A stretch of 64,000 nucleotides of DNA from a virus: IMG/VR virus record IMGVR_UViG_3300032093_000060, positions 25,793 through 89,792 of that record; one strand, 5' to 3'. The notes under the pieces were generated by a model that made no database searches, was not told the DNA's origin, and saw only the letters and a list, made by a program, of their open reading frames with translations. The translations under genes were made by a program, and so were the position numbers. Below are positions 13,701 to 64,000 of this stretch, piece after piece (the first letter of the stretch is position 1; each line of letters begins with the position of its first letter).

Positions 13701-16700
13701 CATTGGTAATTTATTAAGCACCTTACTCATTATATCAAAATTCTTTGGCTTATCTTTTATGATGTCATATATTCTTAGTGGATATTTTTCACCTTTCATT
13801 CCTTTATATTGATCATAATGTTTTTTAAGTAAGTCTGGTGTAATTGGATCATATTCATGTTTAATCAATCCTTTATCAAGCATATCTTGTCTCACCTCTG
13901 CTAGGAAAGGAACTCTCTCTGTACCTTTAGAACCTTTATCAAAATATTTAAGTGTTTCACTTACATAGTTAGGTCTTGCATTTCCAAATAGATCATGTGC
14001 TTTTGATTCTTCAGCTACATCTAATCCAGGTATTTCTAATTGTTTAGACTCTGGTTTTACAAGATCAAGTTCTTTTAATGTTTCATCCAAATATGTTGTA
14101 CCAGATTTTCTTCCTGCATAAGATCCAAGAAAATGTCCAAGTTCATGTGCTGTTACTTTTGGTAATTCTCCTTTTGAAAACAAACCAGGTGTTATAGCAA
14201 TTTCATTTTTTCCACCTCCATAAAATGCACTTTGATTAATATCTTGGCTTAATTCAGAAATATTATTATCTATTATACCTAATTTCTCATCCAAGTCAAC
14301 TTGAATATTAAAATAATCCGATTTTGATATTTGACCATTTTCATACATTTTATCATACATGCTCATCTCATTAAGCAATTCATTTCTCTGAGCTAATTGT
14401 GTTGAATAATGATTATTAATATTATTCATAGATGCCATACCTTCTATTAAAGTATCAGGAGTCTGACCTTGTAATGATGGGGTATTGTCTATCATTTCTT
14501 GAAGTCTTTTCTGTCCTTCTTCTGTTTGCCATAATTCTATTTTATTTGCTCTCATGTCATTAATAACATTTGTAGCAATTTCATTATCTGACAGGGCTTC
14601 AATATTTTTTGTTTTCTGAGTATTTAACTTTTCATCTACAGTATTTAATTTATTAGTTAACTCATCATTTGTTTTTACATATTCATCAAATTCAATAACA
14701 CCGTCTTCAAACTTTTTTTGTAATTCTAGTTGATCAGTTAATAAAAGTTCTTTTTCAGCATTTAAATCTCTAAGTGGAGCAGATATACCAAGATTATCAG
14801 GTGAAGCTATACCCTGCATATTTGGATCACCAGTATATTTTTGTAATACAGTTTGATTATCTAAAGGTGTTACACTTGCACTACCTTGAGTAGGAATTCT
14901 AAAATTTCCAACTAACTTATCAATATTAAAGTCACTTGTTTTTAACTCTAATAAACTTGGAGCAAGAGCAGGAGTTGTAGTCTTTACTGTTTGTCCTACA
15001 GTTGCCATATCACCAAGAGTCATACCTTCTGCAACAGTACTTGCATAACCATATGATGTTGGAGTTTGTTTCATTATTTTAAATTCACCTAAGCCCAATC
15101 CTCCAAATGAAGTACCTGCTGCTCTAGAGAATTTATTAAAGGCTTCAGTAACTCCAGTTAAAACTTGTTCTGATCCATTTAAGTTTGGATTACCAACTAG
15201 TAAACCACCCTCTGCTGGTGATTTATATAAAAAAGAATAATTACCTGATTTAGGTAATACTTGAATTGATCCTGGAGTTTTTAGTTGCTTTAAAATTTGT
15301 GCTCCCTGAACAGTAGGTTTTACAAATGGTAATAAACCTAATGCTCCCCACCCAGCTTCTACAGCTCCTTCTCTTATATTACCTTCTGAAAAAGCATCTA
15401 CAGATTTTGAAATATTTCCACCTGGTCTAATAGCTTCATATCCAAAATATGCATTAAGAGCATTACCAGCTGTTAACCATGGAGCAGAAGCAATTGGTGC
15501 ATAACTTAAAACAGAGGATACAGCACCCATTATAGGTTTAGCAGATAAACCACCAGCCACACCCATAATCCATTCTTTATCTAACATATCAACAGCTCCG
15601 GATGCAGCATTTTTTCTATTAGTGCCGGCAGACCATTTAGGACCTTCAGCTGTTATATTAAAATCACTTTTAAGTTGATTCTGACCTGGTAATCCCGAAG
15701 CTTGAATATATCCTGTAGTTGAACCTTCTGGAGCGTATACCCAGTTAACATAACTTTCATATATTTTTTGAAATTCTTTTGGATCTTCTAAAAATTTTTT
15801 TCTTTGCTCATTAGTAAGATTTTTTTCTAAAAGTATAGCTTTAGCAGCTTGAGCCTGTAGTGCTGTAGTTCTATTAAAGTTATCTATAGCCTGCTGATGA
15901 AGAAACTCTTGTGATTGAGCTTCTTCAGCTGCTGTATTATTATTAGGTGCAACCCACTGTTTTTTACCTGTTGCAGGATCTGTAGTCCATGCACCTACCT
16001 TATTTCTTATAGCTGTACTTTCAGAAGGTAATATAGAATTTGGATGTATAGCATATGGACTTAAAATTTTTGAACCATCTTCTAATACAATATAATCTTT
16101 ACCTGTTTGTTTATCACGTTCTTCTTGAACCCATGCATCAATATTTAAAAGATTTTGTTTTTGATAATTAGTTAAATTATTTGGATTAGTTGCACCAGCT
16201 GCTAGTAATTTTTTTGCTTCTGCTTGACGTGCTTTATATGTTTTTTCTGTATAGTCACCGTAAAGTTTTGTTAATCCAGATTTTGTACCCTCACCCTCCT
16301 CTACAAGTTGATCAATTGCTTGAGTTTTTGTAAGACCAGTTTTAATTAGATTATCAATTTTTTCTTTATTCCTTTTAGCATGAATCATTGATGCATTTTG
16401 ATATATAGGATCAAAATATGTTTTTAATTCTGTTGCATCACCTAAATCTAATTCAGTAGATAATTCATTTGGATTAAGTCCTTTTGTATAAATTAAATCT
16501 GCTACATCTTTACTTGAAAAAATTTCATAATCACCTTCTGGAGTTTTTTTAGGATAATAACCACTATTTTTTAATTCTGTAAGTAGCTCATCTGTCATAT
16601 CTTCTCCAGGAACAAAAGAACCTTTTGGTCTTGATAGATCTTTATATGTTAATTCTTTTGGTGCATATGCATTTATTTTTTCTAGTTTTCTATCTTGTGC

Positions 16701-17939
16701 TTCTTTTCTTATACGATAATCATCTATTTGTTCAGGTGTATAATCAGGTAATTTTATTTCTGCCACAGGAGTAGGAGATACTGTGGGAAGAGAAAAGGGA
16801 TCTTGACCCGGAGTAATTATCTCAGGAGTAACCCCACTCCAAACCGTATTATTCATAGGTTCTTGTGGTTCTCTTCTTTTTTTTCTTTTTTCCCCACCTT
16901 CATCCATTCTAGTTAATGAAGGTACAGAGATGTCTTCTACTACATACCCTCCCTTTACATATTTGTCTATATCTGCTTCATCTATTTCTATTTCTATTGC
17001 TCCTCCAAATTGTAGATATGGTATGTCTTCTGTTTGCCCTGGGACAGAGACCATATCATTTGATAAATTTACTATAGCTTTAGTTCCCTTAGTAACTCCC
17101 CTTAAATCTTCTATATCTGGATCTAATGCTTCTCCAGCTTCTTTTTTTCTTTTAAAACAATCTTCAATATCTTTTACTGTAACAACTTGATCAGGTTTAA
17201 ATCCACATTCATTTCTAAGTGTCATTACTCTTTGTTGTAACTCATTTGCATTAGTTATCTCATCAAAGTTCTTTTTTAAATTTTTATCCCATTCAGGATT
17301 TCCAGTCTTTATTTCTTTAGGTTCTATAATGTTTTGTTCTACAAGATATTGATGAGGTTTTTCTAAAACATCAGAAAACTTATCTCCTGCTTGTATATGA
17401 TGTCCAAACTCATGATGTTTTGTAGCTTCTATTTGAGCTTCTGGTAAATCTTTATTTAAGATTATTTGTTGAGTTTCTGGATCATAATATCCAGCTTCAT
17501 TAGACTTTAATTCTTCAGAATAAATATAAGGCACATTTTGAGATGCTCTTTCTAAAGCTTCAGGACGTATTTTTTCTAAAAGCTTTTGTCCTTCTGGAGT
17601 AGGCATTACTCTATTTTTATACCAATATTTATAGAATTCTTCTGGTGGTCCACCTGGATTGTTTTCTATTATACCACCATTGTCAAAAGCCATTCCGTAT
17701 GGATCATAAATTTTATTTTTATAATTAGGCTTTTTATATAATGGATTTTTCTTTGGCTTTTTATATAAAGCATTCTTAGTGTAAAGTACATTCTTTGCAC
17801 CAAGGTTACTTGAAAATTTTTTAACCCCTCCTTTTTTTAATTTTCCAAGAGGACTTTCTTCAATATCTTTTTTCTTAACCGGCGCTTTAGTTTGGTTAAG
17901 ATTTTTTAACGCAGTAAGTAAAAGCTTTTTATTATACAT
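10788..17939 (-). CDS. Polyvalent virion protein (2383 aa) with two HExxH zincin-like motifs, a nucleotidyltransferase-like motif and hydrophobic helices
   Basis: HHEFGH and AHELGH; FGSS..(x13)..DID motif; hydrophobic GG-rich segments; directly follows the muzzle gene. Confidence 0.6.
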   Translation of the reverse strand: MYNKKLLLTALKNLNQTKAPVKKKDIEESPLGKLKKGGVKKFSSNLGAKNVLYTKNALYKKPKKNPLYKKPNYKNKIYDPYGMAFDNGGIIENNPGGPPEEFYKYWYKNRVMPTPEGQKLLEKIRPEALERASQNVPYIYSEELKSNEAGYYDPETQQIILNKDLPEAQIEATKHHEFGHHIQAGDKFSDVLEKPHQYLVEQNIIEPKEIKTGNPEWDKNLKKNFDEITNANELQQRVMTLRNECGFKPDQVVTVKDIEDCFKRKKEAGEALDPDIEDLRGVTKGTKAIVNLSNDMVSVPGQTEDIPYLQFGGAIEIEIDEADIDKYVKGGYVVEDISVPSLTRMDEGGEKRKKRREPQEPMNNTVWSGVTPEIITPGQDPFSLPTVSPTPVAEIKLPDYTPEQIDDYRIRKEAQDRKLEKINAYAPKELTYKDLSRPKGSFVPGEDMTDELLTELKNSGYYPKKTPEGDYEIFSSKDVADLIYTKGLNPNELSTELDLGDATELKTYFDPIYQNASMIHAKRNKEKIDNLIKTGLTKTQAIDQLVEEGEGTKSGLTKLYGDYTEKTYKARQAEAKKLLAAGATNPNNLTNYQKQNLLNIDAWVQEERDKQTGKDYIVLEDGSKILSPYAIHPNSILPSESTAIRNKVGAWTTDPATGKKQWVAPNNNTAAEEAQSQEFLHQQAIDNFNRTTALQAQAAKAILLEKNLTNEQRKKFLEDPKEFQKIYESYVNWVYAPEGSTTGYIQASGLPGQNQLKSDFNITAEGPKWSAGTNRKNAASGAVDMLDKEWIMGVAGGLSAKPIMGAVSSVLSYAPIASAPWLTAGNALNAYFGYEAIRPGGNISKSVDAFSEGNIREGAVEAGWGALGLLPFVKPTVQGAQILKQLKTPGSIQVLPKSGNYSFLYKSPAEGGLLVGNPNLNGSEQVLTGVTEAFNKFSRAAGTSFGGLGLGEFKIMKQTPTSYGYASTVAEGMTLGDMATVGQTVKTTTPALAPSLLELKTSDFNIDKLVGNFRIPTQGSASVTPLDNQTVLQKYTGDPNMQGIASPDNLGISAPLRDLNAEKELLLTDQLELQKKFEDGVIEFDEYVKTNDELTNKLNTVDEKLNTQKTKNIEALSDNEIATNVINDMRANKIELWQTEEGQKRLQEMIDNTPSLQGQTPDTLIEGMASMNNINNHYSTQLAQRNELLNEMSMYDKMYENGQISKSDYFNIQVDLDEKLGIIDNNISELSQDINQSAFYGGGKNEIAITPGLFSKGELPKVTAHELGHFLGSYAGRKSGTTYLDETLKELDLVKPESKQLEIPGLDVAEESKAHDLFGNARPNYVSETLKYFDKGSKGTERVPFLAEVRQDMLDKGLIKHEYDPITPDLLKKHYDQYKGMKGEKYPLRIYDIIKDKPKNFDIMSKVLNKLPMIIGGGLAVNELTNDDKDSNVSEAGLGLFLAFISRNPNAIKTSKRLQGLVNNFNKYGNVALKELKMLDKRYLTKQIQNLEKEKTDIWDELGIGYNSPKGLTQKQTELIGKTETRKQKFKSFLKMRDVAAEGKLPREIIQELNDQYQLKTTPEQFLNAQETRLDFMDKVGQIFNITPEGLEKTSRGLFEGVTTTGVKPVTDLSTGQVVNAEVRLPGAREEYKLVNGEIVNTSVIEQQPIISGDYITALKNSRADVEAKISGAKVFGSSVLVTEAGMPHITGDIDVIITQSDYNKNVKDNFKFVQDYGPAKQHTVYPQYGEEGILDFNIIHEDANGMVKPFYNPATPDKTPTEIELFRQFYPEKFQEAATKAMVSGKPIEINMTSKDFMAGINPEVKTVIDSYETSPFSKWGNYNPNKEKHILRPDVLIAYGNPEVVAKGQEAYIKSIVGPKGNLGHQFKPEELSDVNKNVDALLKMDFNGDILQTAQDPKRMQLALNDYYINNTVFSREISAASLPGQKYTEDIVKTALTEWFPGKGGSVNGIGLNTVQKGNPTHIPSNENPVIGHRQLGLNLNTSDPVAYVESVIKGTSGNYVFTPEELKIVEELAEKYLPDVKSSIGQDFTSRKILDWYPRNLNSDAPKNFLNELSEKTGIRAIRKEEVTTGGYGRANAAYASVLGKFDEAMDAMMYSLKEYHASPKTLNERKNALKEVKNKRTSGSSYSLKTKEDFQRLYSILDGGRNTLESRINQTKAQIEAANNYRDELIARLKNSDDVELEQLNAEITKLQDRLYNLNFKDLPEFIGRMARLDKMYNILITGGAAAAAIGLGYLGLEKLGEKGRLQDRERERQKRKLKLSREKSFKDYYKAEKNVVLKNNFLQKLPDIAQEWLLSDMWRDTWPTGEPYVITKDGYIEPPKKIKKISNDRYEWILSFDDAIGNDNEKKFGGEASMDLELTPEEIKDYVSRGYLVYEK

Positions 17940-20900
17940 TATCTTGGAGAAAAAGTAGTTTTAGTATTTACTATTTTTAAAATCATGTTTGTATCTCTTG
18001 AATTACTTTTAGAAAGTTTTATAAAGTTAATATAATGTCTAAATTTCTTTCTTTGTAATTCAGGTTTTGTATAATCTAGATTTAAATTATTTAAATCTTT
18101 TACATACCCATTAGGTGATGTTACCCAAATATTTCTTTCATCATAATTACCAAGTAATACTGTAGAATCTGGACTCGGGAAATATGGACCTTGTCCTGGA
18201 GGATAAGGTGAACCTATAGGAAACTCTCCTCTGTTTTTAGTAATATCCCAAAACTGATTTATTCTATACTTATGTTCTTCTTTAGAATAAAGTATATCAT
18301 AACCATTCTGATTAGAATTCAATTTAGGAAACTGTAATGATAATGGGATATCATTTTTAGGATATAGATTTAAATTAAGATATCCGGAAACTTGTTCTGA
18401 GTTATGTATAATTGCCTGATCAAAATTATAATCAAGAACATGAAACTGATCAACACATAAAGCTCTATCTCTTTTATAACACTCTAAATAGTATTCAATA
18501 CTCTTTACAGTATTAGTCATTTGTGCAGTAGGTACAGGTAGTTCAACTTCAAATGGATATTGCACCCCATAGAAATTACAATAGTCATTACAGAATGCAC
18601 TATGTTTCCATATACCATTTCCTTTTGTAGTAAGAAATGTTCCTTTACTGGGTACATAAAAATTAGGATGCCAGTCATGATAACTTATCCAGAACTCAAG
18701 TTTTGGATCATAACTTACAGTCCATGAAGCATCTTCAAAATATCTTGAATCTCCAATTTTTGCTTTCATAGAAATACCTTGACCATTTGGTAAAACAGCC
18801 CCTGGTACAATAAATGAATCTATGTCAGCATTATAAGTTACAAGACCTTTGTATTGTTCTTTTAATCTGTAATCTTTTTTAGAAAAATACAAAACACTAT
18901 TGTCATTATCATAACTTGCCATACATGCAATACCAGCAACTGGATTATCTGTATGTGGATAGTCAGGAAAGTCTTCTAATAATTTAAATGGTAAGAATTC
19001 ACTAAACCACCATTTCATTCCTGATTGAGATATCTCTTGAAGACCTTGTCTATAAGAAAAAACTTTTCCTTGATTTTGTGAAATATAAAATAAACCAGCA
19101 GGAGTTGAAACAACTCCGTATTTATTTTGTGATGAACCATACTCATATGGTTTTTCTGCTACTACAATATTTTGAGGTGCTTGATTAAATAATCCTCCGT
19201 CACCTACAGTAACTTTAGTACCACTATCATCAAGTTGTATAGTATCTACACCTTGATAAATTAAAGGGCTGTCATTTTCAAAAGTGATAAACATACCAGT
19301 CTTAGCAAAGTTTCTTACAGAACTAAGTTTACTTTTAAAGTCTACTTTATTGAGAGGTAAGAATGTTAGCCAAGCATCTATCTCAGAATTTTCTTGTTGT
19401 GGTAAGGAGTATGTTATTCTATTTGGATAACTTACATAACAGAGTTCAGCAACATTGGGATCATAAGAATAACCTTGTAAATATCCTGCTGTAAAATACT
19501 GATTAAATAAAAATCTTGATGCACTTAATGTATAGTCATATGCATAAAAGTTTCCTTTTGTTAAGACTTGCGGATCAGAATCAAATAAAGATTCTAAATC
19601 TGTAAACCTATATTTATTATATGAATTTTGCCAAGGGAAGTTTCCTCTATCTCTAAAATCTACAATTACATCTGACTCAACAAAAAAGTCTCTAATCCCA
19701 TTTGCTGAAGTATAGAAGTAAGAATTTTTAACTCCAAATAATCCGGGATATGCTAATGAGGTATTAAATTGCTTTGAATAAAATGGACTATCTAAATCAT
19801 AATAACTTGATGGCAATATACCTTGACCATAGTCTGGATTATTTGTAAAAGCTTGCAATATATTTGACAAACTAAAATCACTTATATCCCAAGGTTGACT
19901 ATTAACTTGAAACTTAGGTTCTGGGATCATTTGATTTAAAAAATAATTCCATTCAATATTATCAGGAACATCATACAACCAATCATAGAAAAAGTGCATA
20001 ATGTTTTTTTCTGTAAATCTTGTTATATATGTATCACCTCCAAAAAAAGTTGGTGTATACAATTTTGATTGAGAAAAATTATTAATATTACATACTGTGC
20101 CAAAAAAGCTTGTAGCTACAGAGTTAGCTCCTGTTGTGGCATTAAAGTCAATCTTCTGTTCACAAGGGGTTGCTACAACTTGTTGTATTGTATCTATCTG
20201 ACCATATTGGTTTTCTATTCTATATTTAATACCAACATAGTGACTAGCAATTTTATTTATAAAATTTTTAGATTTACCTTGTTCGGTCCAGTTAACTTTA
20301 TTTTTTACAAAGTTTAAATATTGAGCTCCAATAAGATATGTAGCTGGGTTTCCTGCTAATGGATTAAATGTATCAATTGCATAACCTAATGTCATTAATG
20401 ATTGATCTATACTATAACCATTTGAATCAAGAATATAATGAGGACCATCTGTCTGACCATTACCTCTTGTTGTTCTTAATACAACTAATTTAGGTCGTTT
20501 AATATTATTAATTCTATACTGAACTAAATTGTTGGAACTATTATAATATTCAGGAAGTGCTTGTAACTGATCATTAATATAGATGCCCTCATTCATTATA
20601 AATCTTCTGTCTTGTGAATAGTCTGGATTTACAAAGGCATTATAATCCCCATGTCCTACAAGTTCCAATGCATATTGTCTTTTTCTTATGATAGCATAGA
20701 TTGTATCAATTGCTAAATTCATTCCTTCTACAAAGTAGAATAATAACTGACCTCCTGATGTTGCAGCACTTAAAAAACCACTAATTGCAGGACCAAGCAT
20801 TTGATAACCGGTATATGTTTTATCATAGGTTGGTGTAGTTATATATTTACCATCTTGTGCTACCTGCTCATATGTACTTGAGAAAATAGATTCAAGTGAT

Positions 20901-23485
20901 GTACCACTTCCAAATGTTTCAAAGTATGCACCACCAGTAGTCATATAAGTATTTAATTGACCCTTAAAGTTTCCAGGACCAGAAAATAAAGTATTGTATA
21001 CATCATTATAGTAAGTTTGACCACCAACATTATTTAAGAATATTGGATCACCTTGACCTTGTTGATCATAGTTATCACCATCAATTTTAGTATTAATGTT
21101 ACTTATTACTGTTGTAAATCCACCACTATTACCATTAGGTCCATTTATTGTGTTAGTTGCAGCACCACCATCAATTTTTAATTTAGCTTCAAATTGTGGA
21201 TCAAAGTTACCAGCAGGATAATTAATCTTAACTTCTCCAAGTCCTTTTAGTATAGCATTAATTACTCCTGTTGCAATTGCAAATGGAAGAATCTTATTAG
21301 ATATTAATTTGAACTGTGGATGTTTGCTTGGTTCAATAAAATATTGATATGCATCTCCTCTCAAACTTCCATAAATTTTAAGTTCAGTAGTAGATAGATA
21401 TGGATTAATAAAACTAGTATCCGGAGAGTGAAATGAAATTATATCTCTTGGAATAAACTGGTTTTCTTTGTCGTTATTGTTATCTCTTACTGTTATATAA
21501 GGATCATTAAATACATAATTATAATTACCTGGATTAGTTAAATCATTTAGTTTAGGAACAATACAATTAAATGGATAGTTAGCATAAAGACCATCTACTC
21601 CAGCATCTTGCGCACTTCCTCTAGGATTATAATTTCTAAAATTATTAATCATACCTTTTGCAAGAACACTCTTATTACCGTGTCTTGAACCTCTTAATAT
21701 TTCATAACCAACAATTCCCGGTATATCATTACCATCATTATCTTTTGGAAATATAATATTTTTAAATTCTACCCCCATTAATCTAATTACAAATTCACCA
21801 TTTTGTTTTCTTGCAAAATGATAAGCTTGTCCAAACAAATCATTATCAGGAAATCTGTGGTGTCTAATATATTTTCCACAAAGATCATAATCAGGATTTG
21901 TAGTTTGTGTCCAACAGTGTGAAGATGAATTCCATATAAATGGTTTAGTATCGGGATATTTTTCAGTTGACTGCCAATAACCCATTTTACCTTTTGCAAC
22001 TACAAGACCTCCATCTGGAAGTGTAGATTGAACTGCTGAAGTTACAGAAGCTGTATTTATACTTTGAAACAACATTGTATCTCCAGGTAAAGTAACTCCT
22101 GTTGTATTAGAAAAACCATCTGTCTCAAGTGGATAGTTTACTCCAGCATACGTATAACTTCCAGGAGGTCTTCCTGGAATATGATATGAAGCTGATTTAT
22201 CTCCAGTATCATAGACCCATCTAATAAAGAATGAGTAAACCTCATCTCTTAAATAAGATGTATGTTTCCCACCATTATTATAATAAGTTTCTGGATATTC
22301 AACAGCTACCCACTCTGCCTCTATTAAGTTAGCTAAGGGTTGATAGTTAAAATCAAATTTACCTGTTGGCCCTATTCTTAATAAATAACTATTTACTTCA
22401 GACATCTGAGCAGATTTTTCAAAAACAGGATTTTGTAATATTAAATCTTCTACAGGTACAGTAACTGTTGTTTCACGTATTTGATCTAAAAGAATTGTTT
22501 TTGTTCTAGTAGAATAATATCCAATTCTTTTTGCACTTAAGTTCTGATCTATAAATCTTACAACAACAAGTTCAAACTCTTCAAAATGTTCTGAGTCAGC
22601 ATCAACTGTAATTTCAAATGATCCTCTAAAGTTTACTTCATTCCAAACAGGTTGAATATAACTTGCTGAGAAATAGTTAGTTACTCTGTTTCTATTAATA
22701 ACATATGCTGCGGTAATAGCATATGAGCCATTTTCTAAAACTCCTTGTTGATCAGAAATATTAATATCAAAGCATGGAGTCTTTACTAATGATGCTAATC
22801 TTATTGCATCACAGTTTAAAGTATTTGTTGGATTACATATTTTACATGGAGTGGGCCCTACTCCAGGTTGCGTAACACATTTTTCATCCCATGCAACATT
22901 TGGCCAAAGTATTAAATTACCAGATTGATCTGAGTAATAGTTTATATTTGGTCCAGGACCTACCCAAACATAATTATGTGAAGGCCATGACTTTGGATCT
23001 CCTATATTTAATACTCTATCTGGATTTAAATTATCTGCCCAATAAACTTGCCATGTACAGTCATCTTTTAATTTTGATGCTCCTGTTATTAAATGTAATT
23101 TGCTAAAGTTTAAACAGTTATCCTGAACTATTGGTCTATAACTACACAGATCAGATTCAAACAATCCAATTTCAGAATTTAAAGCTTTTGAATTTTGTAC
23201 ATCATAAGCAACAGAATAAACAACCCACTTATCACTAAATAAATGTATAGCACCTATGATATAGGTAAACTGAGAATTCATTGTTGTTCCAACTAGAGCA
23301 CACAATGCATTAGATTCTTCATTAGATAATGTACCAAGATCTCCTTCTGCTGTATTATTTACAGCATTCCGGGCATGTGTCCACATACCCTCTTGTACAA
23401 ATAAAGGATCAGCATCTTTATTTAATCCCTTTATAAATGAATTACTTTGCGTAGAAGAAGCATCAGCTTGTTGTTTTTTAGCCAT
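17939..23485 (-). CDS. Tail stabilisation / muzzle protein (P22 gp10-like, crAss Tstab)
   Basis: N-terminal FIKGLNKD...ARNAVN...GTLSNEESN; YWADNLNPDR; SYLRDEVYSFFIRW; C-terminal WTVSY..WISYHDWHP; follows the ring-protein genes. Confidence 0.75.
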   Translation of the reverse strand: MAKKQQADASSTQSNSFIKGLNKDADPLFVQEGMWTHARNAVNNTAEGDLGTLSNEESNALCALVGTTMNSQFTYIIGAIHLFSDKWVVYSVAYDVQNSKALNSEIGLFESDLCSYRPIVQDNCLNFSKLHLITGASKLKDDCTWQVYWADNLNPDRVLNIGDPKSWPSHNYVWVGPGPNINYYSDQSGNLILWPNVAWDEKCVTQPGVGPTPCKICNPTNTLNCDAIRLASLVKTPCFDINISDQQGVLENGSYAITAAYVINRNRVTNYFSASYIQPVWNEVNFRGSFEITVDADSEHFEEFELVVVRFIDQNLSAKRIGYYSTRTKTILLDQIRETTVTVPVEDLILQNPVFEKSAQMSEVNSYLLRIGPTGKFDFNYQPLANLIEAEWVAVEYPETYYNNGGKHTSYLRDEVYSFFIRWVYDTGDKSASYHIPGRPPGSYTYAGVNYPLETDGFSNTTGVTLPGDTMLFQSINTASVTSAVQSTLPDGGLVVAKGKMGYWQSTEKYPDTKPFIWNSSSHCWTQTTNPDYDLCGKYIRHHRFPDNDLFGQAYHFARKQNGEFVIRLMGVEFKNIIFPKDNDGNDIPGIVGYEILRGSRHGNKSVLAKGMINNFRNYNPRGSAQDAGVDGLYANYPFNCIVPKLNDLTNPGNYNYVFNDPYITVRDNNNDKENQFIPRDIISFHSPDTSFINPYLSTTELKIYGSLRGDAYQYFIEPSKHPQFKLISNKILPFAIATGVINAILKGLGEVKINYPAGNFDPQFEAKLKIDGGAATNTINGPNGNSGGFTTVISNINTKIDGDNYDQQGQGDPIFLNNVGGQTYYNDVYNTLFSGPGNFKGQLNTYMTTGGAYFETFGSGTSLESIFSSTYEQVAQDGKYITTPTYDKTYTGYQMLGPAISGFLSAATSGGQLLFYFVEGMNLAIDTIYAIIRKRQYALELVGHGDYNAFVNPDYSQDRRFIMNEGIYINDQLQALPEYYNSSNNLVQYRINNIKRPKLVVLRTTRGNGQTDGPHYILDSNGYSIDQSLMTLGYAIDTFNPLAGNPATYLIGAQYLNFVKNKVNWTEQGKSKNFINKIASHYVGIKYRIENQYGQIDTIQQVVATPCEQKIDFNATTGANSVATSFFGTVCNINNFSQSKLYTPTFFGGDTYITRFTEKNIMHFFYDWLYDVPDNIEWNYFLNQMIPEPKFQVNSQPWDISDFSLSNILQAFTNNPDYGQGILPSSYYDLDSPFYSKQFNTSLAYPGLFGVKNSYFYTSANGIRDFFVESDVIVDFRDRGNFPWQNSYNKYRFTDLESLFDSDPQVLTKGNFYAYDYTLSASRFLFNQYFTAGYLQGYSYDPNVAELCYVSYPNRITYSLPQQENSEIDAWLTFLPLNKVDFKSKLSSVRNFAKTGMFITFENDSPLIYQGVDTIQLDDSGTKVTVGDGGLFNQAPQNIVVAEKPYEYGSSQNKYGVVSTPAGLFYISQNQGKVFSYRQGLQEISQSGMKWWFSEFLPFKLLEDFPDYPHTDNPVAGIACMASYDNDNSVLYFSKKDYRLKEQYKGLVTYNADIDSFIVPGAVLPNGQGISMKAKIGDSRYFEDASWTVSYDPKLEFWISYHDWHPNFYVPSKGTFLTTKGNGIWKHSAFCNDYCNFYGVQYPFEVELPVPTAQMTNTVKSIEYYLECYKRDRALCVDQFHVLDYNFDQAIIHNSEQVSGYLNLNLYPKNDIPLSLQFPKLNSNQNGYDILYSKEEHKYRINQFWDITKNRGEFPIGSPYPPGQGPYFPSPDSTVLLGNYDERNIWVTSPNGYVKDLNNLNLDYTKPELQRKKFRHYINFIKLSKSNSRDTNMILKIVNTKTTFSPR

Positions 23486-53830: not shown

Positions 53831-56242
53831 TTATACGGTTAATAAAAGTTTATATGCTACACCATTTATAGTTACTGGCAAGTAATGTGTTTGTGTTTCA
53901 GTAGAAAGTACAACTGGACCTACTGGAGTTGCTAAACTACCAATTACAAGTTGTCCACTTCCGGTAGCTGTAGCACCTTGTCCAATTACAATACAGTTAT
54001 TAAATGCACCAGTATCAGTATCAGAACCAATTGCTGTGTTATTAGATCCTGTTGCAGAAGCCATTGATCTACCTCCAATTGCAGTATTCTTTAAACCTGT
54101 AATATTATTAGCTAATGTATTATATCCTAAAGATGTGTTATTGGCTCCAGTTGTCATATTTTGACCTGCCAAATGTCCAACGCTTGTGTTGTTATTTCCA
54201 GTTGTAAGATTTTGGTAACTTGCATTACCAATTACAATATTATATGATCCACTTAATGATGCTGAATTTAATACTGAACCTGAACCCATAGCTACGTTAT
54301 TACTACCTGTTGCACTACCAGATAAGGTTTGATAACCAAATGCTGTATTATTTGAACCAGTATTATTATTACTTAAAGCAAAAGTTCCTACAGCAGTATT
54401 ATAACCACCATTGGTAGTACTTCTTAAGGCATATCTACCCATAGCAACATTGGATGTGCCAGTCGAAAGAGTTCCTAAAGCACCTTCACCAAAAGCTGAA
54501 TTATTAGTTCCAGTTGAAACAAATGCTAATGCACTCTGTCCAAAAGCTGAATTACTAGTTCCACTTGATATATTTGATAATGCACCCTCTCCAAACTGTG
54601 TATTACTTGAAATATTACCCGTCCCATTACACCATACAGTTCTATTACTATTATCATATTCAAACTGCGGTGGTAAACTGTAGTTAGGTACATTTAAAGT
54701 TGAACCTACTAAAGTTGCAACACCAGTTGTACCAGTTGTAGTTAGAGTTGCAATACCTGATGGACCAGCTGGACCTTGAGGACCAATTGGACCAGTTGCA
54801 CCCGCAGGTCCTACGGGACCTACAAGACCTTGTGGTCCTACTGCACCAGGTGCACCAGTTGCTCCTGTTGCCCCAGCAGCTCCGGCAGGACCTGTTGCTC
54901 CTACAGCAGCTAATAGTGCCCAATTTCCTGGATCAGATGGAGGATCTAAAAAAGATGGACCTGCACCTGCAGGATTATAACAGAAATAAGATGCTCCACC
55001 AAAAGAAACAGCATCATTTTGTGCATAAGTTGCGGATGGATCCCAAAGTCCTTGCCAAGTTAATCCTGCAGGTCCGATTGGACCCTGTGGACCCGTTGCT
55101 CCTGTAGGACCTTGTGGGCCAGTAGCACCTGTCGCGCCACTAGCTCCAGTAGCACCAACAGGACCGGTAGCACCAACAGGTCCAGCAATTCCTTGTAGTC
55201 CTGTAGCTCCGGCTGCTCCAGCTGGTCCTGCTGGACCTGTAGCACCTATTGATGTTAATAATGCCCAGTTACCTGGATCTGAAGCTGGGTCACTTGCAGA
55301 TGTTACACCTGCAGGATTTGTACAAAAATATGTAGAACCTCCAAATGCTACTGCATCATTTAATGCATATGTAGCCATAGAAACCCAGTTACCTTGCCAG
55401 TTTAAACCTGCTGGTCCTACTGGTCCTTGAGGCCCTTGAGCACCTGTTGCCCCTTGAGGTCCCGCAACTCCTTGAATTCCTTGAGGTCCGGCAGGTCCTG
55501 TTAATCCAATTGGACCTTGTAAACCTGTAGCTCCTGTTGGACCGACTGGACCCGCAGAGCCTGTGGCACCTGTAATACCCTGAATACCTTGAGCTCCTGT
55601 AAGACCAATAGGTCCTTGAGGGCCAGTTAAACCTATAGGTCCTTGTATACCTTGATTTCCTTGTGGACCTTGTGCACCTTGAGATGCAAGTAAAGCCCAA
55701 TTAGTAGAATCTAAATCAGGAGTTAATGTTCCTGCTGTTGCATTAATACAAAAATATGATGCTCCACCATAAGCTACTGCATCATCAACCACATATGATC
55801 CACCAGATACCCATGAACCTTGCCAATTTAATCCAGCTGGACCAACAGCACCTGCTGGGCCTTGGATTCCTTGAGGACCTGCAACCCCTTGGACTCCTGA
55901 TGCTCCCGTTGCTCCAGTTAATCCTTGAGATCCTATTAATCCTTGAGGTCCTTGAAGTCCTTGCGCACCCTGTGGACCAACAGGTCCCTGTGCTCCATTA
56001 GCTCCCTGAACTCCAGTTATACCTTGGATACCTTGTGCTCCTTGAGGTCCAACGGGTCCTTGTGGACCAACTTGACCTTGACCAACTTGAGTTAAAAAAT
56101 TTTGAACAGATATGCCTGCAGCTAAAAAATCATCATCTCTTTGATCATCTTTAATACCGATTGGTATTAAGGTTTTAGTAGGATCAACAGAAGTTACTAC
56201 ACGTCTACTTCGTAACCAGTATATAAAATTTAAAATGTCCAT
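53831..56242 (-). CDS. Collagen-like fibre protein with three CBM5/12-like modules and YadA-head-like repeats
   Basis: Long (Gly-X-Y)n runs; three copies of L.WQG.W.....Y..DAV..GG..YFC...NWALL; C-terminal N.A.G..AL repeats. Confidence 0.85.
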   Translation of the reverse strand: MDILNFIYWLRSRRVVTSVDPTKTLIPIGIKDDQRDDDFLAAGISVQNFLTQVGQGQVGPQGPVGPQGAQGIQGITGVQGANGAQGPVGPQGAQGLQGPQGLIGSQGLTGATGASGVQGVAGPQGIQGPAGAVGPAGLNWQGSWVSGGSYVVDDAVAYGGASYFCINATAGTLTPDLDSTNWALLASQGAQGPQGNQGIQGPIGLTGPQGPIGLTGAQGIQGITGATGSAGPVGPTGATGLQGPIGLTGPAGPQGIQGVAGPQGATGAQGPQGPVGPAGLNWQGNWVSMATYALNDAVAFGGSTYFCTNPAGVTSASDPASDPGNWALLTSIGATGPAGPAGAAGATGLQGIAGPVGATGPVGATGASGATGATGPQGPTGATGPQGPIGPAGLTWQGLWDPSATYAQNDAVSFGGASYFCYNPAGAGPSFLDPPSDPGNWALLAAVGATGPAGAAGATGATGAPGAVGPQGLVGPVGPAGATGPIGPQGPAGPSGIATLTTTGTTGVATLVGSTLNVPNYSLPPQFEYDNSNRTVWCNGTGNISSNTQFGEGALSNISSGTSNSAFGQSALAFVSTGTNNSAFGEGALGTLSTGTSNVAMGRYALRSTTNGGYNTAVGTFALSNNNTGSNNTAFGYQTLSGSATGSNNVAMGSGSVLNSASLSGSYNIVIGNASYQNLTTGNNNTSVGHLAGQNMTTGANNTSLGYNTLANNITGLKNTAIGGRSMASATGSNNTAIGSDTDTGAFNNCIVIGQGATATGSGQLVIGSLATPVGPVVLSTETQTHYLPVTINGVAYKLLLTV

Positions 56243-60957: not shown

Positions 60958-61473
60958 ATGGCTTTACAAGCAAAATTTCTAAAAGTTGGCAAAGGTGGAA
61001 CCTTAGCCATCTATGAAGTGCGTGGCACTTCAACTGAGTTAGCATCTTACGTTGCTAACAACTTTAAAAACAGCGAACCTGTTTTCAAATCTACTCCGGA
61101 TGGCAAGCTCATCCTGAGTAATGGAAATAAAGTTCCACTTTATTTCACTTCTTACCCGTTACCGGGCAAGAATATGTGGCACCCTTTGTATCAAGTACAA
61201 ATGGGTGACAATGCAGGTTCTTGGACTTTAGACAAGTCAGAACTGCAATTTGATGCTCTTGTTGCCAAGAGCCTCGGTGCTGACTTAGGTCAGGCAATTG
61301 CAGCCGAGTCTGCAAAAAGGTATGCTGATAGCACACCTGTGTCATCATCTGCATCAAGCTTGCTTGATGAAGAAGATGATAGTGAAGAGGACTTCACTGC
61401 AGATGCTTCTGAAGAAGCAAATTTGGAAACTGTTGAAACAACAGCTCCCAAAACAGCTAAGACTAACAAGTAG
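60958..61473 (+). CDS. Early protein with acidic C-terminal tail
   Basis: LLDEEDDSEEDF tail; cassette ORF. Confidence 0.8.
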   Translation: MALQAKFLKVGKGGTLAIYEVRGTSTELASYVANNFKNSEPVFKSTPDGKLILSNGNKVPLYFTSYPLPGKNMWHPLYQVQMGDNAGSWTLDKSELQFDALVAKSLGADLGQAIAAESAKRYADSTPVSSSASSLLDEEDDSEEDFTADASEEANLETVETTAPKTAKTNK

Positions 61474-61488
61474 CCTTAGCAAAATAAT

Positions 61489-61525
61489 AAGAGTAGCCAC
61501 TAACGTGGTTACTCTTTTATTTTTT
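61489..61525 (+). terminator. Rho-independent terminator
   Basis: AAGAGTAGCCAC TAAC GTGGTTACTCTT TTATTTTTT. Confidence 0.85.
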
Positions 61526-61552
61526 CAAACCTGAAACATAACCCTCTTTCTT

Positions 61553-61568
61553 CTAGCCCGTAACATAG
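61553..61568 (+). promoter_or_regulatory. Early promoter-like motif copy 5 (CTAGCCCGTAACATAG), not followed by an ORF
   Basis: Repeat motif; next credible ORF starts at 61958. Confidence 0.7.
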
Positions 61569-61957
61569 TTTGCTATTGCACTCTTTATAGAGTGCTAATA
61601 CAAGAAACATACAAGTAATATGTAGTTATTTTAAACATTGTGTTTTAAATTTTACAGTTAATAGGCTCAAAGTATAGGGAAATATACTTGCTACTTGCAT
61701 GTATCAGGTTTCAGGTTTCTAACTTTTTGATTAAAATCTTTTGTCTCCACCGTGTGTAGCAAGTAGACTTTAGTATTGATAATCAGATAGTTACAAAATG
61801 CGGAAATAAGTATGTATATATCTGTATGTTATGTATATTGTTACTACTTACTACTTTATACCTTCTACTTATCTTGTATTATTGTATTATAATACTTTAG
61901 TATTATATAGATTTTATATAGCTAAACCTAATTGTGTAACCAACTAAACACATATAT

Positions 61958-62146
61958 ATGAATTCTGTTAATAGAATTACCATTACAGAAGATTATGCTT
62001 TACAGCTTAATACTTCTATTGAAGCTCTTATACTAGAGCAAGAGAAACAAGGCTTCCGGGAAGTTAATAGATACACACATCCTGCGGTAGGATTAGTAGT
62101 TGTTCTAACTGATGCACCTGTACCTGATTATTCTCTTGCACCATGA
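61958..62146 (+). CDS. Small early protein ending PDYSLAP
   Basis: ORF with ATGA coupling to the next gene. Confidence 0.7.
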   Translation: MNSVNRITITEDYALQLNTSIEALILEQEKQGFREVNRYTHPAVGLVVVLTDAPVPDYSLAP

Positions 62147-62388
62147 GTAATAGAGATTCATTCCTTATAGGCTTTATACTTGGAGCTGTTTCTTTCTGCG
62201 TACTTATACATATAGTATTACATGTTATTGTAAAGAAAGAAACTCCCGGGAAAGCCTCTCAGCACATCAAGACTGAATACTTTCTTGAAGTGTCTGAAGA
62301 CAGCATTAAAGTTGAATCTTTACATGGTAATGTTTATCAAGGTACATATAGTGACCTTGATAGCATTATCTGTAAGGATAATCTTTAA
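62143..62388 (+). CDS. Single-TM small protein
   Basis: N-terminal hydrophobic helix. Confidence 0.7.
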   Translation: MSNRDSFLIGFILGAVSFCVLIHIVLHVIVKKETPGKASQHIKTEYFLEVSEDSIKVESLHGNVYQGTYSDLDSIICKDNL

Positions 62389-62396
62389 TTATTAGT

Positions 62397-62925
62397 ACAT
62401 CAACTGTAAATAACCGAGGGGGAGTTTTTAACCTTTGCACTCTATGCGGTTTACATACAAGTAGCAATACTTGAGGGGGTTGTTGATGTCAAGCAAAGTT
62501 CATTACTGTTAGTAAACAGTGACAAACCTGTGGGGCTACTATTGGGTTCTATATTTCTCCTGCAAAGAGAGTATAGTACTGACATATCATTTGCAGTGAT
62601 ATGAATCCAAAGTTAGTGCAGACTTAAAAATCAGGTATTTTACACATAGTATTGATAAAGCTATGTGAGTTTAATTTAAACTATCATTATCATGAGAACT
62701 TATTAGTCTCATGTTATATGATTATCTATTCTCCTTCACAAGATTCCACTTGGGAGAATACAGCTGACTGAAGTGGAATTCAGTTTACTTACAAGAATAA
62801 GGATTCAGCGATCCTTCTCTATGGCCTAGGAAACCATATGTGTCTTGTACAGTTGTTTAAATATTGAGCACAATCAATATTATTATTATTACTAACAATC
62901 AAGTCCTGTGTACCTAGCACAGGCA
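62397..62925 (+). ncRNA. Candidate large structured ncRNA or ncRNA array
   Basis: No credible ORF over ~550 nt; many stems with G-U pairs on the + strand, a GCAA tetraloop, a 7-bp kissing loop and an H-type pseudoknot. Confidence 0.6.
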
Positions 62926-62951
62926 AGTCCTCAAACTAAAAAAATTAAGTT

Positions 62952-63086
62952 ATGATTGTTAAAACTATGATTGAATTGTTCCAAGGTAATTTAACCAAGG
63001 TACAATATGTTAAGTATTCTAATGGTAAAACTATTAAAAGAATACTTGGTAAAGATAATGTTCCTGAATTCATCATTAATCTGTAA
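62952..63086 (+). CDS. Small hypothetical protein (44 aa, not in the ORF track)
   Basis: MIVKTMIELFQGNLTKVQYVKYSNGKTIKRILGKDNVPEFIINL after an A-rich leader. Confidence 0.6.
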   Translation: MIVKTMIELFQGNLTKVQYVKYSNGKTIKRILGKDNVPEFIINL

Positions 63087-63090
63087 GACT

Positions 63091-63243
63091 ATGAAGAATT
63101 ATATGCCATATATCTTTGTTGTTCTTTTGTTAGGAACATTTTCCGGGTTACTTATGTCTATGGGAAGCAACATACTTGCTTCTGTAGGTATGATGTCATT
63201 ATTCTGGGCAGCTATGCTTGCTCCCGTATTGGTTAGCAAGTAA
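63091..63243 (+). CDS. Small two-TM membrane protein (50 aa)
   Basis: Likely true start 63091 (MKNYMPYIFV...), 4 nt after the previous stop. Confidence 0.65.
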   Translation: MKNYMPYIFVVLLLGTFSGLLMSMGSNILASVGMMSLFWAAMLAPVLVSK

Positions 63244-63249
63244 CCATAC

Positions 63250-63277
63250 TATCCTGAGTAGGATATAAAACTGCTCA
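63250..63277 (+). ncRNA. Small H-type pseudoknot (copy 1)
   Basis: TATCC/GGATA and TGAGTA/TGCTCA with an A-rich linker. Confidence 0.55.
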
Positions 63278-63390
63278 CTGCCTATTGTATTATTAAAGAC
63301 ATGAAAGAGTCAACTGTAAAAATCAGTTATAATACAATAAGAAATGGTGAAGCAAAACAGTTAAACAGAAACCATTAATAGCAGTTATTT

Positions 63391-63482
63391 ACTCTCATCC
63401 AAGCAGGATAACATACTACCATTGAGCTTATGATGCTCCGTGATGGATGTATGTCAAGGGTTGCAACCTTGTGAGAGTACCA
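63391..63482 (+). ncRNA. tRNA-like RNA with elongated anticodon arm and encoded CCA
   Basis: ACTCTCA/TGAGAGT acceptor + A + CCA; CAAGG-GTTGCAA-CCTTG T-like arm. Confidence 0.6.
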
Positions 63483-63484
63483 AT

Positions 63485-63599
63485 AATCAGATAGAGAAGA
63501 AAGTTCTCACTCAGCAGTATAACTGACTAGTATACACTTATGTCTAGTCAACATAAGAAAAACTGAGAGGTCAGCAGGTGAAAGTCCTGCTTCTGATTA
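63485..63599 (+). ncRNA. tRNA-like RNA with a 48-nt insert in place of the anticodon loop
   Basis: AATCAGA/TCTGATT; TA; GAGAA/TTCTC; A; CTCAG/CTGAG; AGGTC; AGCAGG-TGAAAGT-CCTGCT. Confidence 0.6.
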
Positions 63600-63632
63600 A
63601 GATACAATAGAAAGGCAGTGATATTCTGCGTA

Positions 63633-63659
63633 TACCTGAGCATGTAGACAAAAGGCTCA
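63633..63659 (+). ncRNA. Small H-type pseudoknot (copy 2)
   Basis: TAC/GTA and TGAGC/GCTCA; sequence similar to copy 1. Confidence 0.45.
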
Positions 63660-63699
63660 TTTTTTTAAACTTAATTAATCACTTATAAATAAACTTAAA

Positions 63700-64000
63700 A
63701 TGAAAATTCATTTAAACTCAAGACAAGGTCTCTATGAAGTAGAGACATATGGTAGAGATACAATTACATTATCTACCAAACATAATGTGTTTCAAGTACC
63801 AGTATCTGATTTTAAATCATTTGCCGGTGGTAATTGGAACTTTAATGTACCCAAAGAAAAAATGGATACATTTTTATCAGTTGTTCAACCTGATAAATAT
63901 AAAATACAAGTTGAACAAGAGAATCAAATACTAACTCTAGCTGTTAGATTAGGTATGATTCAAGATGCAGTTAAAGCACAACAATCAGTTGTTGTAGAAG
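63700..64000 (+). CDS. Hypothetical protein (runs off the right edge)
   Basis: ATG 63700 after an A-rich leader, MKIHLNSRQGLYEVETY...; frame open to the window end. Confidence 0.75.
   Translation, partial: MKIHLNSRQGLYEVETYGRDTITLSTKHNVFQVPVSDFKSFAGGNWNFNVPKEKMDTFLSVVQPDKYKIQVEQENQILTLAVRLGMIQDAVKAQQSVVVE

Follow-up and report, generated by a model that had tools for sequence, protein, structure and literature searches.

A hatchet ribozyme joined to a conserved folded tail and a predicted second cut site in a freshwater phage genome

What kind of RNA, if any, is encoded by a gene-free, helix-rich stretch of a phage genome? We asked this of IMG/VR record IMGVR_UViG_3300032093_000060, an 89,792-nucleotide (nt) virus record from freshwater whose completeness is judged to be 75%. 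The window analysed here is the last 64 kb of that record, and the stretch under study lies at 62397-62933 on its + strand. A sequence-only reading had proposed 62397-62925 (about 530 nt) as a candidate for one ornate phage RNA, non-coding and comparable to GOLLD or ROOL. Instead, we found three units: a separate module (domain A), a hatchet ribozyme, and a tightly folded tail that ends in what appears to be a copy of the ribozyme's own cut site. As judged from its sequence, the phage probably cuts out a 428-base RNA, which is perhaps closed into a ring.

The only Rfam family matched above its gathering score in the 64-kb window was Hatchet (RF02678), on the + strand at 62499-62636 (82.1 bits, E 1.8e-15; gathering score 51), and the match covers the whole model (positions 1-133 of 133). 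The hatchets of five relatives score 77.7-81.4 bits, and a permissive scan of 61400-64000 brought no other Rfam family near significance. Hatchet P1 helices are almost always 3 or 6 base pairs (bp) long (PMC4604424), and the 6-bp P1 of the window (UUACUG/CAGUGA), followed by the three-base linker CAA and by a P2 in which ACCUG pairs with CAGGU, fits the published layout. An alignment to the consensus agrees at CAA, UGUGGGGC, GUGCAGAC and AAAAUCAGG, which make up the P1-P2 linker and the P2-P3 bulge, and the two letters that deviate both fall within a stretch reported to be dispensable for catalysis. The core is invariant in 21 relatives, while one P4 hairpin covaries in six pairs. The extended P4 bears two hairpins with invariant 7-nt loops (CTGCAAA at 62560-62566 and TTTGCAG at 62590-62596) that are complementary to each other, and these are the kissing loop that the sequence-only reading had assigned to a "domain B".

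About 90% of hatchets carry a non-conserved hairpin, P0, a few bases 5' of the cut site (PMC4604424). Of 28 relatives, 26 have a predicted helix that stops 1-7 nt short of P1; in the window the distance is 4 nt. Hatchets cleave between position -1 and U1, where U1 is the first P1 pair and is matched with the base preceding the CAA linker that follows P1 (PMC4604424; PMC6561176). By homology, the cut is predicted to fall between A62502 and U62503, at the base of P1. The element thus resembles known hatchets (Li et al. 2015, PMC4604424; Zheng et al. 2019, PMC6561176) in matching the entire model, in its 6-bp P1, CAA linker and conserved bulge letters, in having a structured element at the P0 position, and in a cut site placed at the ribozyme's own 5' end. 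Unlike the published hatchet, it has an enlarged P4 made of two hairpins whose loops are complementary, and the ACGU palindrome associated with dimers in the crystal hatchet reads ACUU in the window. A larger difference lies downstream: the published hatchet motif stops at P2, whereas here it is followed by about 290 more conserved, structured bases and by a second copy of the cut site. The hatchet itself is already known, but a full-text literature search found no description in print of such a conserved tail, of a second site, or of a phage origin.

Where does this unit begin and end? Viral contigs were scanned with one motif from the hatchet core and two from the tail, and together with blastn this gave 27 related loci, which with the window make up alignment A2 (L096, a duplicate of L088, was left out). 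In all 27 tail-motif viral contigs the hatchet lies directly upstream of the tail, and the alignment begins at 62499-62502 and ends at about 62933, behind upstream flanks of at least six unrelated types. Another 32 contigs came from metagenomes scanned for the motif at the tail's end, and the hatchet lies 388-485 nt upstream in all 24 that are long enough (the other eight end at the contig edge). Every copy found, in the 27 viral and the 32 metagenome contigs, sits in phage-like DNA. The sequences that follow the tail also fall into several unrelated types, including a different open reading frame (ORF) in L118, and in most relatives a start codon appears within about 20-45 nt of the tail.

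Both ends of the unit resemble a hatchet cut site. The first reads UCN↓UUACUG (the arrow marks the predicted cut) in 44 of 45 distinct relatives, with a variable -1 base (U in 17, A in 17, C in 11), and conservation starts there. At the end of the tail, all 43 distinct relatives whose tail is complete carry UC(C/G)↓UCA, and conservation stops at A62933. This second motif matches positions 2-7 of the Rfam hatchet model (U C u u c A), and its UCA could pair with the UGA that closes the 3' strand of P1 (UGA in 44 of 45). The resident outer strand of P1 is UUA, and the second P1 pair is a U-G wobble in 21 of 21 sequences, so the C of the second site would be expected to pair more strongly. Between the two predicted cuts, the unit measures 385-482 nt in the relatives (median 448), with a G+C content of 0.358.

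As 138 of the roughly 530 nt belong to a known family, the novelty suggested by the sequence-only reading is in part removed. The tail at 62637-62933 matches no Rfam family. The tail is a new, tightly folded and conserved RNA of about 290 nt that is always joined to a hatchet. Its structure was tested on 25 sequences with eight helices and 52 pairs between 62720 and 62938. Paired cells make up 96.2% of the proposed structure as opposed to 36-41% with slid partners, both sides have changed in 21 of the 52 pairs as opposed to 2-6, and none of 500 shuffles reached the observed covariation score. Helix H1 is 99.5% paired and the loop-loop contact K1 100% paired, each with two pairs changed on both sides (for K1, the compensation comes from L132). 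An alternative two-pair extension of H2 is likewise conserved alongside K1, and therefore the two may alternate. In the three-way junction, the arms show both-side changes in 2 of 4 and 6 of 8 pairs; its closing stem, judged by eye, is a conserved CAAG/CTTG that L090 and L132 replace by other letters, and the column scan of this stem was disturbed by alignment gaps. The second loop-loop contact, K2, has a compensatory change in L129 and another in L065, a distant relative. The covariance model built from the tail (R1) finds the distant tail of L065/L072 directly after their hatchet (33.5 bits, E 1.5e-7), where K1 is kept and K2 is kept with changed letters. The only other match of note is a weak one at L092 5716-5892 (15 bits, E 0.06), which ends in AGTCCTCAA.

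The two parts of the tail nearest to the ribozyme differ in conservation. The first is near-invariant in 28 relatives, with one pair appearing as C-G, U-G and U-A, and a hairpin with other stem letters and a similar loop stands at the same place in five of six hatchet clusters (alignment A5, by eye). The second is a variable insert, which takes at least five unrelated forms or is missing among the relatives; an RNA contig from run X19 carries 70 different letters there, with the joint running from 62683 to 62721. We also considered whether the tail could be a fold of the nested hepatitis delta virus (HDV) type, a hammerhead core or a hairpin-ribozyme-like site, and rejected all three because the required elements are absent by eye and no Rfam match was found.

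All of the helices that the sequence-only reading had named are present in the sequence (Table 1), and its general picture of a dense, strand-specific structure with pseudoknot and kissing-loop contacts is upheld by compensatory changes; its "pseudoknot C" corresponds to the interleaved helices at 62727-62784, where K1 is backed by covariation. The 551 nt at 62390-62940 fold at -142.9 kcal/mol, compared with -120.8 +/- 5.6 for dinucleotide shuffles (z -3.94), and 0 of 100 shuffles fold as well. The minus strand also beats its own shuffles (z -3.29), and therefore energy alone does not choose the strand. The strand is settled as + because the hatchet match lies on it and because G-U pairs, which the sequence-only reading had taken to favour + and which would be A-C on the other strand, are conserved: UG, for example, is kept at three pairs in 23, 24 and 23 of 25 sequences. 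Its description of the region as free of ORFs needs qualification, since mechanical ORFs of 33-44 amino acids overlap the region. None of these is conserved. The longest ORF differs among 27 relatives in strand, place and length (26-72 amino acids), and therefore there is no conserved ORF and the region is non-coding.

Table 1. Positions of the RNA features in the 64-kb window (↓, predicted cut)
Feature	Position	Strand	Details
Domain A	62397..62498	+	Three-way junction
Domain A closing stem	62397-62404/62482-62489	+	ACATCAAC/GTTGATGT; pairing in sequence
Domain A arms	62405-62416/62447-62455; 62458-62473	+	First arm with inner hairpin, second a variable hairpin; prediction
Domain A inner helices		+	TGTAAA..CCG/CGG..TTTACA; hairpin CAAGTA-GCAA-TACTTG at 62458-62473; pairing in sequence
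First cut site	62500..62503	+	U62500 C62501 A62502 ↓ U62503; placed by homology, base of P1
Hatchet ribozyme	62499..62636	+	P1 62503-62508/62517-62522; CAA linker 62523-62525; P2 62526-62530/62632-62636
Predicted excised RNA	62503..62930	+	428 nt; inferred from the two sites
Tail part 1	62637..62684	+	Hairpin 62643-62649/62661-62667 (CACATAG/CTATGTG, pairing in sequence), then A/U-rich near-palindrome 62668-62682
Tail part 2	62685..62719	+	Variable insert; in the window hairpin CATGAGA 62691-62697/TCTCATG 62707-62713, pairing in sequence
H1	62727-62735/62752-62760	+	Covariation, 25 sequences
H2	62767-62770/62781-62784	+	Part of the structure tested on 25 sequences
K1 loop-loop contact	62743-62751 with 62771-62779	+	Joins the loops of H1 and H2
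Three-way junction	62790..62849	+	Arm 62799-62804/62811-62816 with conserved loop TCAGCG
Junction stem and arms	62790-62796/62843-62849	+	TACAAGA/TCTTGTA; arms AAGGAT/ATCCTT and TATGG/CCATA; pairing in sequence
Junction second arm	62820-62824/62834-62838	+	Loop CCTAGGAAA
Hairpin AATATTGA/TCAATATT	62860..62881	+	Stem 62860-62867/62874-62881, pairing in sequence; both-side changes in 5/6 pairs
Terminal hairpin	62905..62923	+	CCTGTG 62905-62910/CACAGG 62918-62923, pairing in sequence; both-side changes in 3/7 stem pairs
K2 loop-loop contact	62912-62916 with 62827-62831	+	Terminal-hairpin loop with junction-arm loop; compensatory changes
Second cut-site copy	62927..62933	+	G U C C ↓ U C A; predicted cut C62930/U62931

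At 73 hatchet loci outside the family, mostly on gut phage contigs, the next ORF of at least 50 amino acids lies at least 200 nt after the hatchet, and the downstream regions of hatchet loci group into six clusters. We counted the motif TC-N followed by the complement of each locus's own P1 end. It is present in 25 of 25 loci of the window's family, in 40 of 41 loci of the larger gut cluster (where P1 is 3 bp, UCA/UGA), in all members of two small clusters (3/3 and 2/2), and in a single-locus cluster (1/1) whose P1 ends in UAA and whose site reads UUA. Complementary loops also cap the final two hairpins of the larger gut cluster and have changed together in two separate ways. No sequence similarity to the tail was found by an nhmmer tail profile in the downstream regions of the other hatchet clusters, and model R1 found neither gut cluster.

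Sequencing runs not flagged as a possible source were searched for sampled words of the stretch, which were present at 80-95% in five DNA runs (four studies) and at 23-47% in six metatranscriptome runs (four studies). Most of the runs that hold the stretch are labelled freshwater or lake. In all four metatranscriptome runs examined (four studies), contigs cover 62513-62894 at 99-100% identity. No contigs of these four runs lie on 61500-62387 or 62928-64000, although the uncovered part is not evidence. In three studies there are contigs that break off at 62892-62894 (one of them followed by adapter letters), and several others begin at 62513-62514. We do not take these places for RNA ends, as they coincide with the polymorphic base 62513 and with the most variable stretch of the tail.

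Taken together, we consider with moderate confidence that the region encodes a self-excising structured RNA of the phage, in which both sites are cut and U62503-C62930 is released. As we picture it, the hatchet would cut UCA↓U62503 during transcription of the + strand gene block, freeing an upstream RNA whose 3' end would be the folded domain A. The kissing-loop fold would then carry the end of the tail to the ribozyme, where the UCA of the second site would oust the resident UUA from the outer three P1 pairs, with C-G replacing the U-G wobble, and the ribozyme would next cut after C62930. Such an exchange of the outer half of P1 would account for P1 being almost always 3 or 6 bp. The 428-nt product would bear the 5'-OH and 2',3'-cyclic phosphate that Mg-dependent hatchet cleavage leaves, ends that could be joined by the reverse ribozyme reaction or by a host ligase of the RtcB type. 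In a circle formed in this way the cut site would be restored, and the terminal hairpin would occupy the place of P0. As for its role, our guess is a nuclease-resistant non-coding RNA that acts early in infection.

Several observations weigh against this account. The second site offers only three pairs against a 6-bp P1, and nothing is conserved after its UCA, which makes the strand exchange a conjecture. One relative of the 45, L131, is without UC at the first site. The second site is ambiguous in the second gut cluster, where the strict motif was found at only 18 of 31 loci and there are two candidate places. The five-base motif also occurs in 31-68% of shuffled 520-nt downstream stretches; being so frequent by chance, it carries weight through its position and extended context. 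The RNA contigs fall short of the predicted 5' end by 10-11 nt and of the predicted 3' end by 36-38 nt, and among those listed for the four RNA runs none contains a back-joint or reaches either predicted end. Contigs cannot reveal RNA ends; they show presence in RNA libraries only, which is not proof of transcription since such libraries can carry DNA. Joined or tandem forms were found in 0 of 32 metagenome contigs, which says little as these are apparent DNA assemblies.

Some of these points would suit another scheme in which the hatchet makes one cut and trims the 5' end of a linear RNA. The tail could then be a stabilising or insulating 5' leader for the small gene that starts with the ATG at 62952, or a linear stable non-coding RNA, and the terminal GUCCUCA would serve otherwise, for example as a protein or ribosome contact. 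Such a scheme agrees with the place of the unit between + strand ORFs, with the start codon close behind the tail in most relatives, with the weakness of a 3-bp helix against a 6-bp P1, and with the lack of a back-joint among the RNA contigs. Nevertheless, we think it rather unlikely. The tail is conserved regardless of several unrelated downstream sequences (among them the ORF of L118), conservation halts, in all 43 relatives, precisely where the cut-site consensus recurs, the letters at +1 to +3 track the P1 end in other clusters, and a 290-nt fold with two kissing contacts far exceeds the needs of a leader. In addition, circular hatchet RNAs of the same size, G+C content and habitat have been reported (Lee et al. 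2022, bioRxiv 10.1101/2022.07.19.500677).

Those circles have one hatchet in one polarity and are classed as viroid-like (Lee et al. 2022), which raises the prospect that the phage carries a DNA copy of an autonomous RNA replicon, as a captured passenger or a launch pad, with rolling-circle copying and a hatchet that cuts the multimers. The sharp ends of the unit and its at least six unrelated upstream contexts in related phages would also be expected of a mobile piece. We hold this to be improbable, however, as every copy found lies in phage-like DNA contigs, the G+C content of the unit (0.36) fits the phage (0.30-0.37 in most 2-kb bins) and counts as unusually low among viroid-like circles (Lee et al. 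2022), no polymerase that copies RNA templates was identified, and a ribozyme of one polarity suffices for production from a DNA template. Still less credence, in our view, can be given to the single 530-nt RNA of the sequence-only reading, even though the whole stretch folds better than its shuffles and holds several contacts of a tertiary type. Domain A is absent upstream in 22 of 28 relatives and stands apart from any hatchet in nine contigs, and a predicted self-cleavage site separates it from the rest. GOLLD and ROOL are large phage-associated RNAs that often lie near tRNA genes. Neither is matched at gathering score in the whole window, neither figures in the 12 matches that 61400-64000 gave up to E 10, and there are no tRNA genes within the 64-kb window. 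The predicted 428-nt RNA shares with GOLLD and ROOL a large, ornate, protein-free fold encoded by a phage, but differs from them in its smaller size and built-in ribozyme as well as in these two respects.

The unit also invites comparison with the hatchet circles themselves. Lee et al. 2022 report the hatchet from 34 circular-RNA clusters that range over 357-567 nt and are mostly aquatic; the main cluster, which is also the most diverse, is of 440 nt and almost entirely freshwater, with a median G+C content of 35% that was called unusually low for viroid-like circles. The window's family (385-482 nt, median 448; G+C 0.358; also mostly freshwater or aquatic) is likened to them by size, G+C content and habitat. 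Both have one hatchet in one polarity and branched predicted folds, although theirs are RNA circles of unknown origin while ours is a single-copy piece of a DNA phage genome. A link between hatchet circles and DNA phages is not made in the available passages of Lee et al. 2022, nor was one found by full-text literature search. One preprint notes, as an aside, that hatchets are for the most part restricted to genomes of Crassvirales. That DNA phages are the source of the "viroid-like" hatchet circles, with one hatchet using two sites by a swap of the outer P1 and kissing loops locking the ring, is a further idea, to which we would give slightly less than an even chance.

Two other systems bear comparison. 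Retrozymes rely on a pair of hammerheads located in repeats; in the phage unit a single ribozyme would act at both sites. Retrozymes, retrotransposons that hijack the machinery of autonomous retrotransposons, and other ribozyme-excised circles are, as is proposed for the phage unit, DNA-encoded non-coding RNAs that are self-cleaved out and mature as circles (Lee et al. 2022). The theta (HDV-like) ribozymes found by phage tRNA genes are also phage-encoded, and in them, as in the hatchet here, a cut at the ribozyme's own 5' end trims the 3' end of a structured RNA upstream (Kienbeck et al. 2024, PMC10879173). They belong to another class, no true tRNA lies upstream of the hatchet in the window, and the available parts of that paper report neither a conserved tail nor a second site (PMC10879173). 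Among our relatives, L127, L021 and L128 have an element directly before the hatchet that is tRNA-like or a hairpin. L116 has a true tRNA gene at 10052-10125 (Rfam tRNA, 69.6 bits), some 3.2 kb downstream of its hatchet unit.

Domain A is a module in its own right, which in the window does no more than fill the P0 position. It is considered independent because it is rare upstream of the hatchet (6 of 28 relatives) and found apart from it in nine contigs; in all, true copies occur at 15 places, namely the window and five contigs just before the hatchet, and the nine contigs elsewhere. Twelve distinct copies (alignment A4) show compensatory changes in 7 of 28 predicted pairs. A pseudoknot between CTTTGC at 62433-62438 and GCAAAG at 62492-62497 is probable, although both strands are invariant in 12 of 12 copies and covariation therefore cannot speak on it. 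The helix made by this loop and the conserved 3' extension GCAAAG ends 4 nt before P1, and for this reason we place domain A at the P0 position, where most relatives have a plain hairpin. The GCAA loop at 62458-62473, which the sequence-only reading had pointed out, is present in the window, but relatives carry TTTA, GAAA, GTAA or a longer hairpin in its place.

In the nine contigs where no hatchet follows domain A, another conserved non-coding element was observed downstream of domain A, directly after it in seven (L115, L118, L137, L144, L145, L153 and L155) and about 115 bases later in L116 and L140 (locations include L115 3836-4100, L137 8844-9000, L144 2619-2840 and L116 7600-7800). It consists of a hairpin with the loop TTCCCAAGG, a long-range stem CAGTTGTA/TACAACTG around a variable insert, and then GAGTGCAGAGGG, and a GIY-YIG-like ORF begins 53 nt into it in L115 and L118. 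The element looks intron-like or ribozyme-like, and nothing in Rfam matched it at gathering score on L115, L116 or L118. Other pieces recur near domain A and the hatchet as well. The next ORF-free stretch of the window, at 63250-63659, has patches (63373-63485, 63454-63487 and 63605-63658) that are conserved in the same relatives. A homologue of 63391-63486 directly precedes domain A in L155 (7500-7662, minus strand of the locus), and the 3' half of such a homologue lies directly before the hatchet cut site in L127. A conserved 11-nt hairpin loop, TAACCAATAAT, occurs with differing stems (GTACAGC/GCTGTAC or GTGTGGC/GCCACAC), and its hairpin is P0 in six relatives (L119, L124, L017, L132, L117 and L121) and stands before domain A in L047. 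Phages that carry the hatchet or domain A seem to hold an array of shuffled RNA modules. At the other end of the unit, the tail is followed by TTTTACTTTTATATATTTGTGG in L128, L127, L021, L278, L283, L293, L297, L306 and L307. This sequence contains a box like TAnnTTTG, the Bacteroidota promoter motif, and a new transcription unit may start right after the tail in L128, L127, L021 and the metagenome loci.

Structural genes lie on the - strand, small + strand ORFs begin at about 59.6 kb in the window, and G+C content is 0.30-0.37 in most 2-kb bins. The capsid protein is at most 28.5% identical to those of annotated phages (Leptolyngbya phage Lbo-JY46) and about 28% identical to those of Cellulophaga phages phi17:2 and phi4:1, and at these identities a crAss-like phage label was abandoned. 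A distant-mode DNA search with 61900-64000 gave zero matches to annotated phages, and none of the six small ORFs tried around the region matched a PHROG family. On the question of the host, a scan of genome contigs with the hatchet core motif returned at least 120 stretches; among the matches listed only L203 had the rest of the core, and the others were dismissed as chance motif matches, so that no host emerged. Elsewhere in the window, an 803-amino-acid ORF on the - strand (53831-56242) has collagen-like tail-fibre matches (best PHROG E 3e-121) and falls in the sole 2-kb bin with a G+C content of 0.44, and two giant adjoining ORFs of 2383 and 1848 amino acids occupy 10788-23485 on the - strand.

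All 210 of the first hatchet examples were metagenomic (PMC4604424). To our knowledge, no biological role has been known for hatchet ribozymes since their discovery. If one ribozyme both bounds and releases a folded RNA, the class would gain a testable function and its first natural job, and the preference for a P1 of 3 or 6 bp would gain a reason. RNAs now filed as viroid-like replicators would become phage gene products, representing a new kind of phage-encoded circular non-coding RNA, and the same design, with shorter tails, would hold in the hatchet clusters of gut phages. Such a design suggests a compact, single-ribozyme route to circular RNA.

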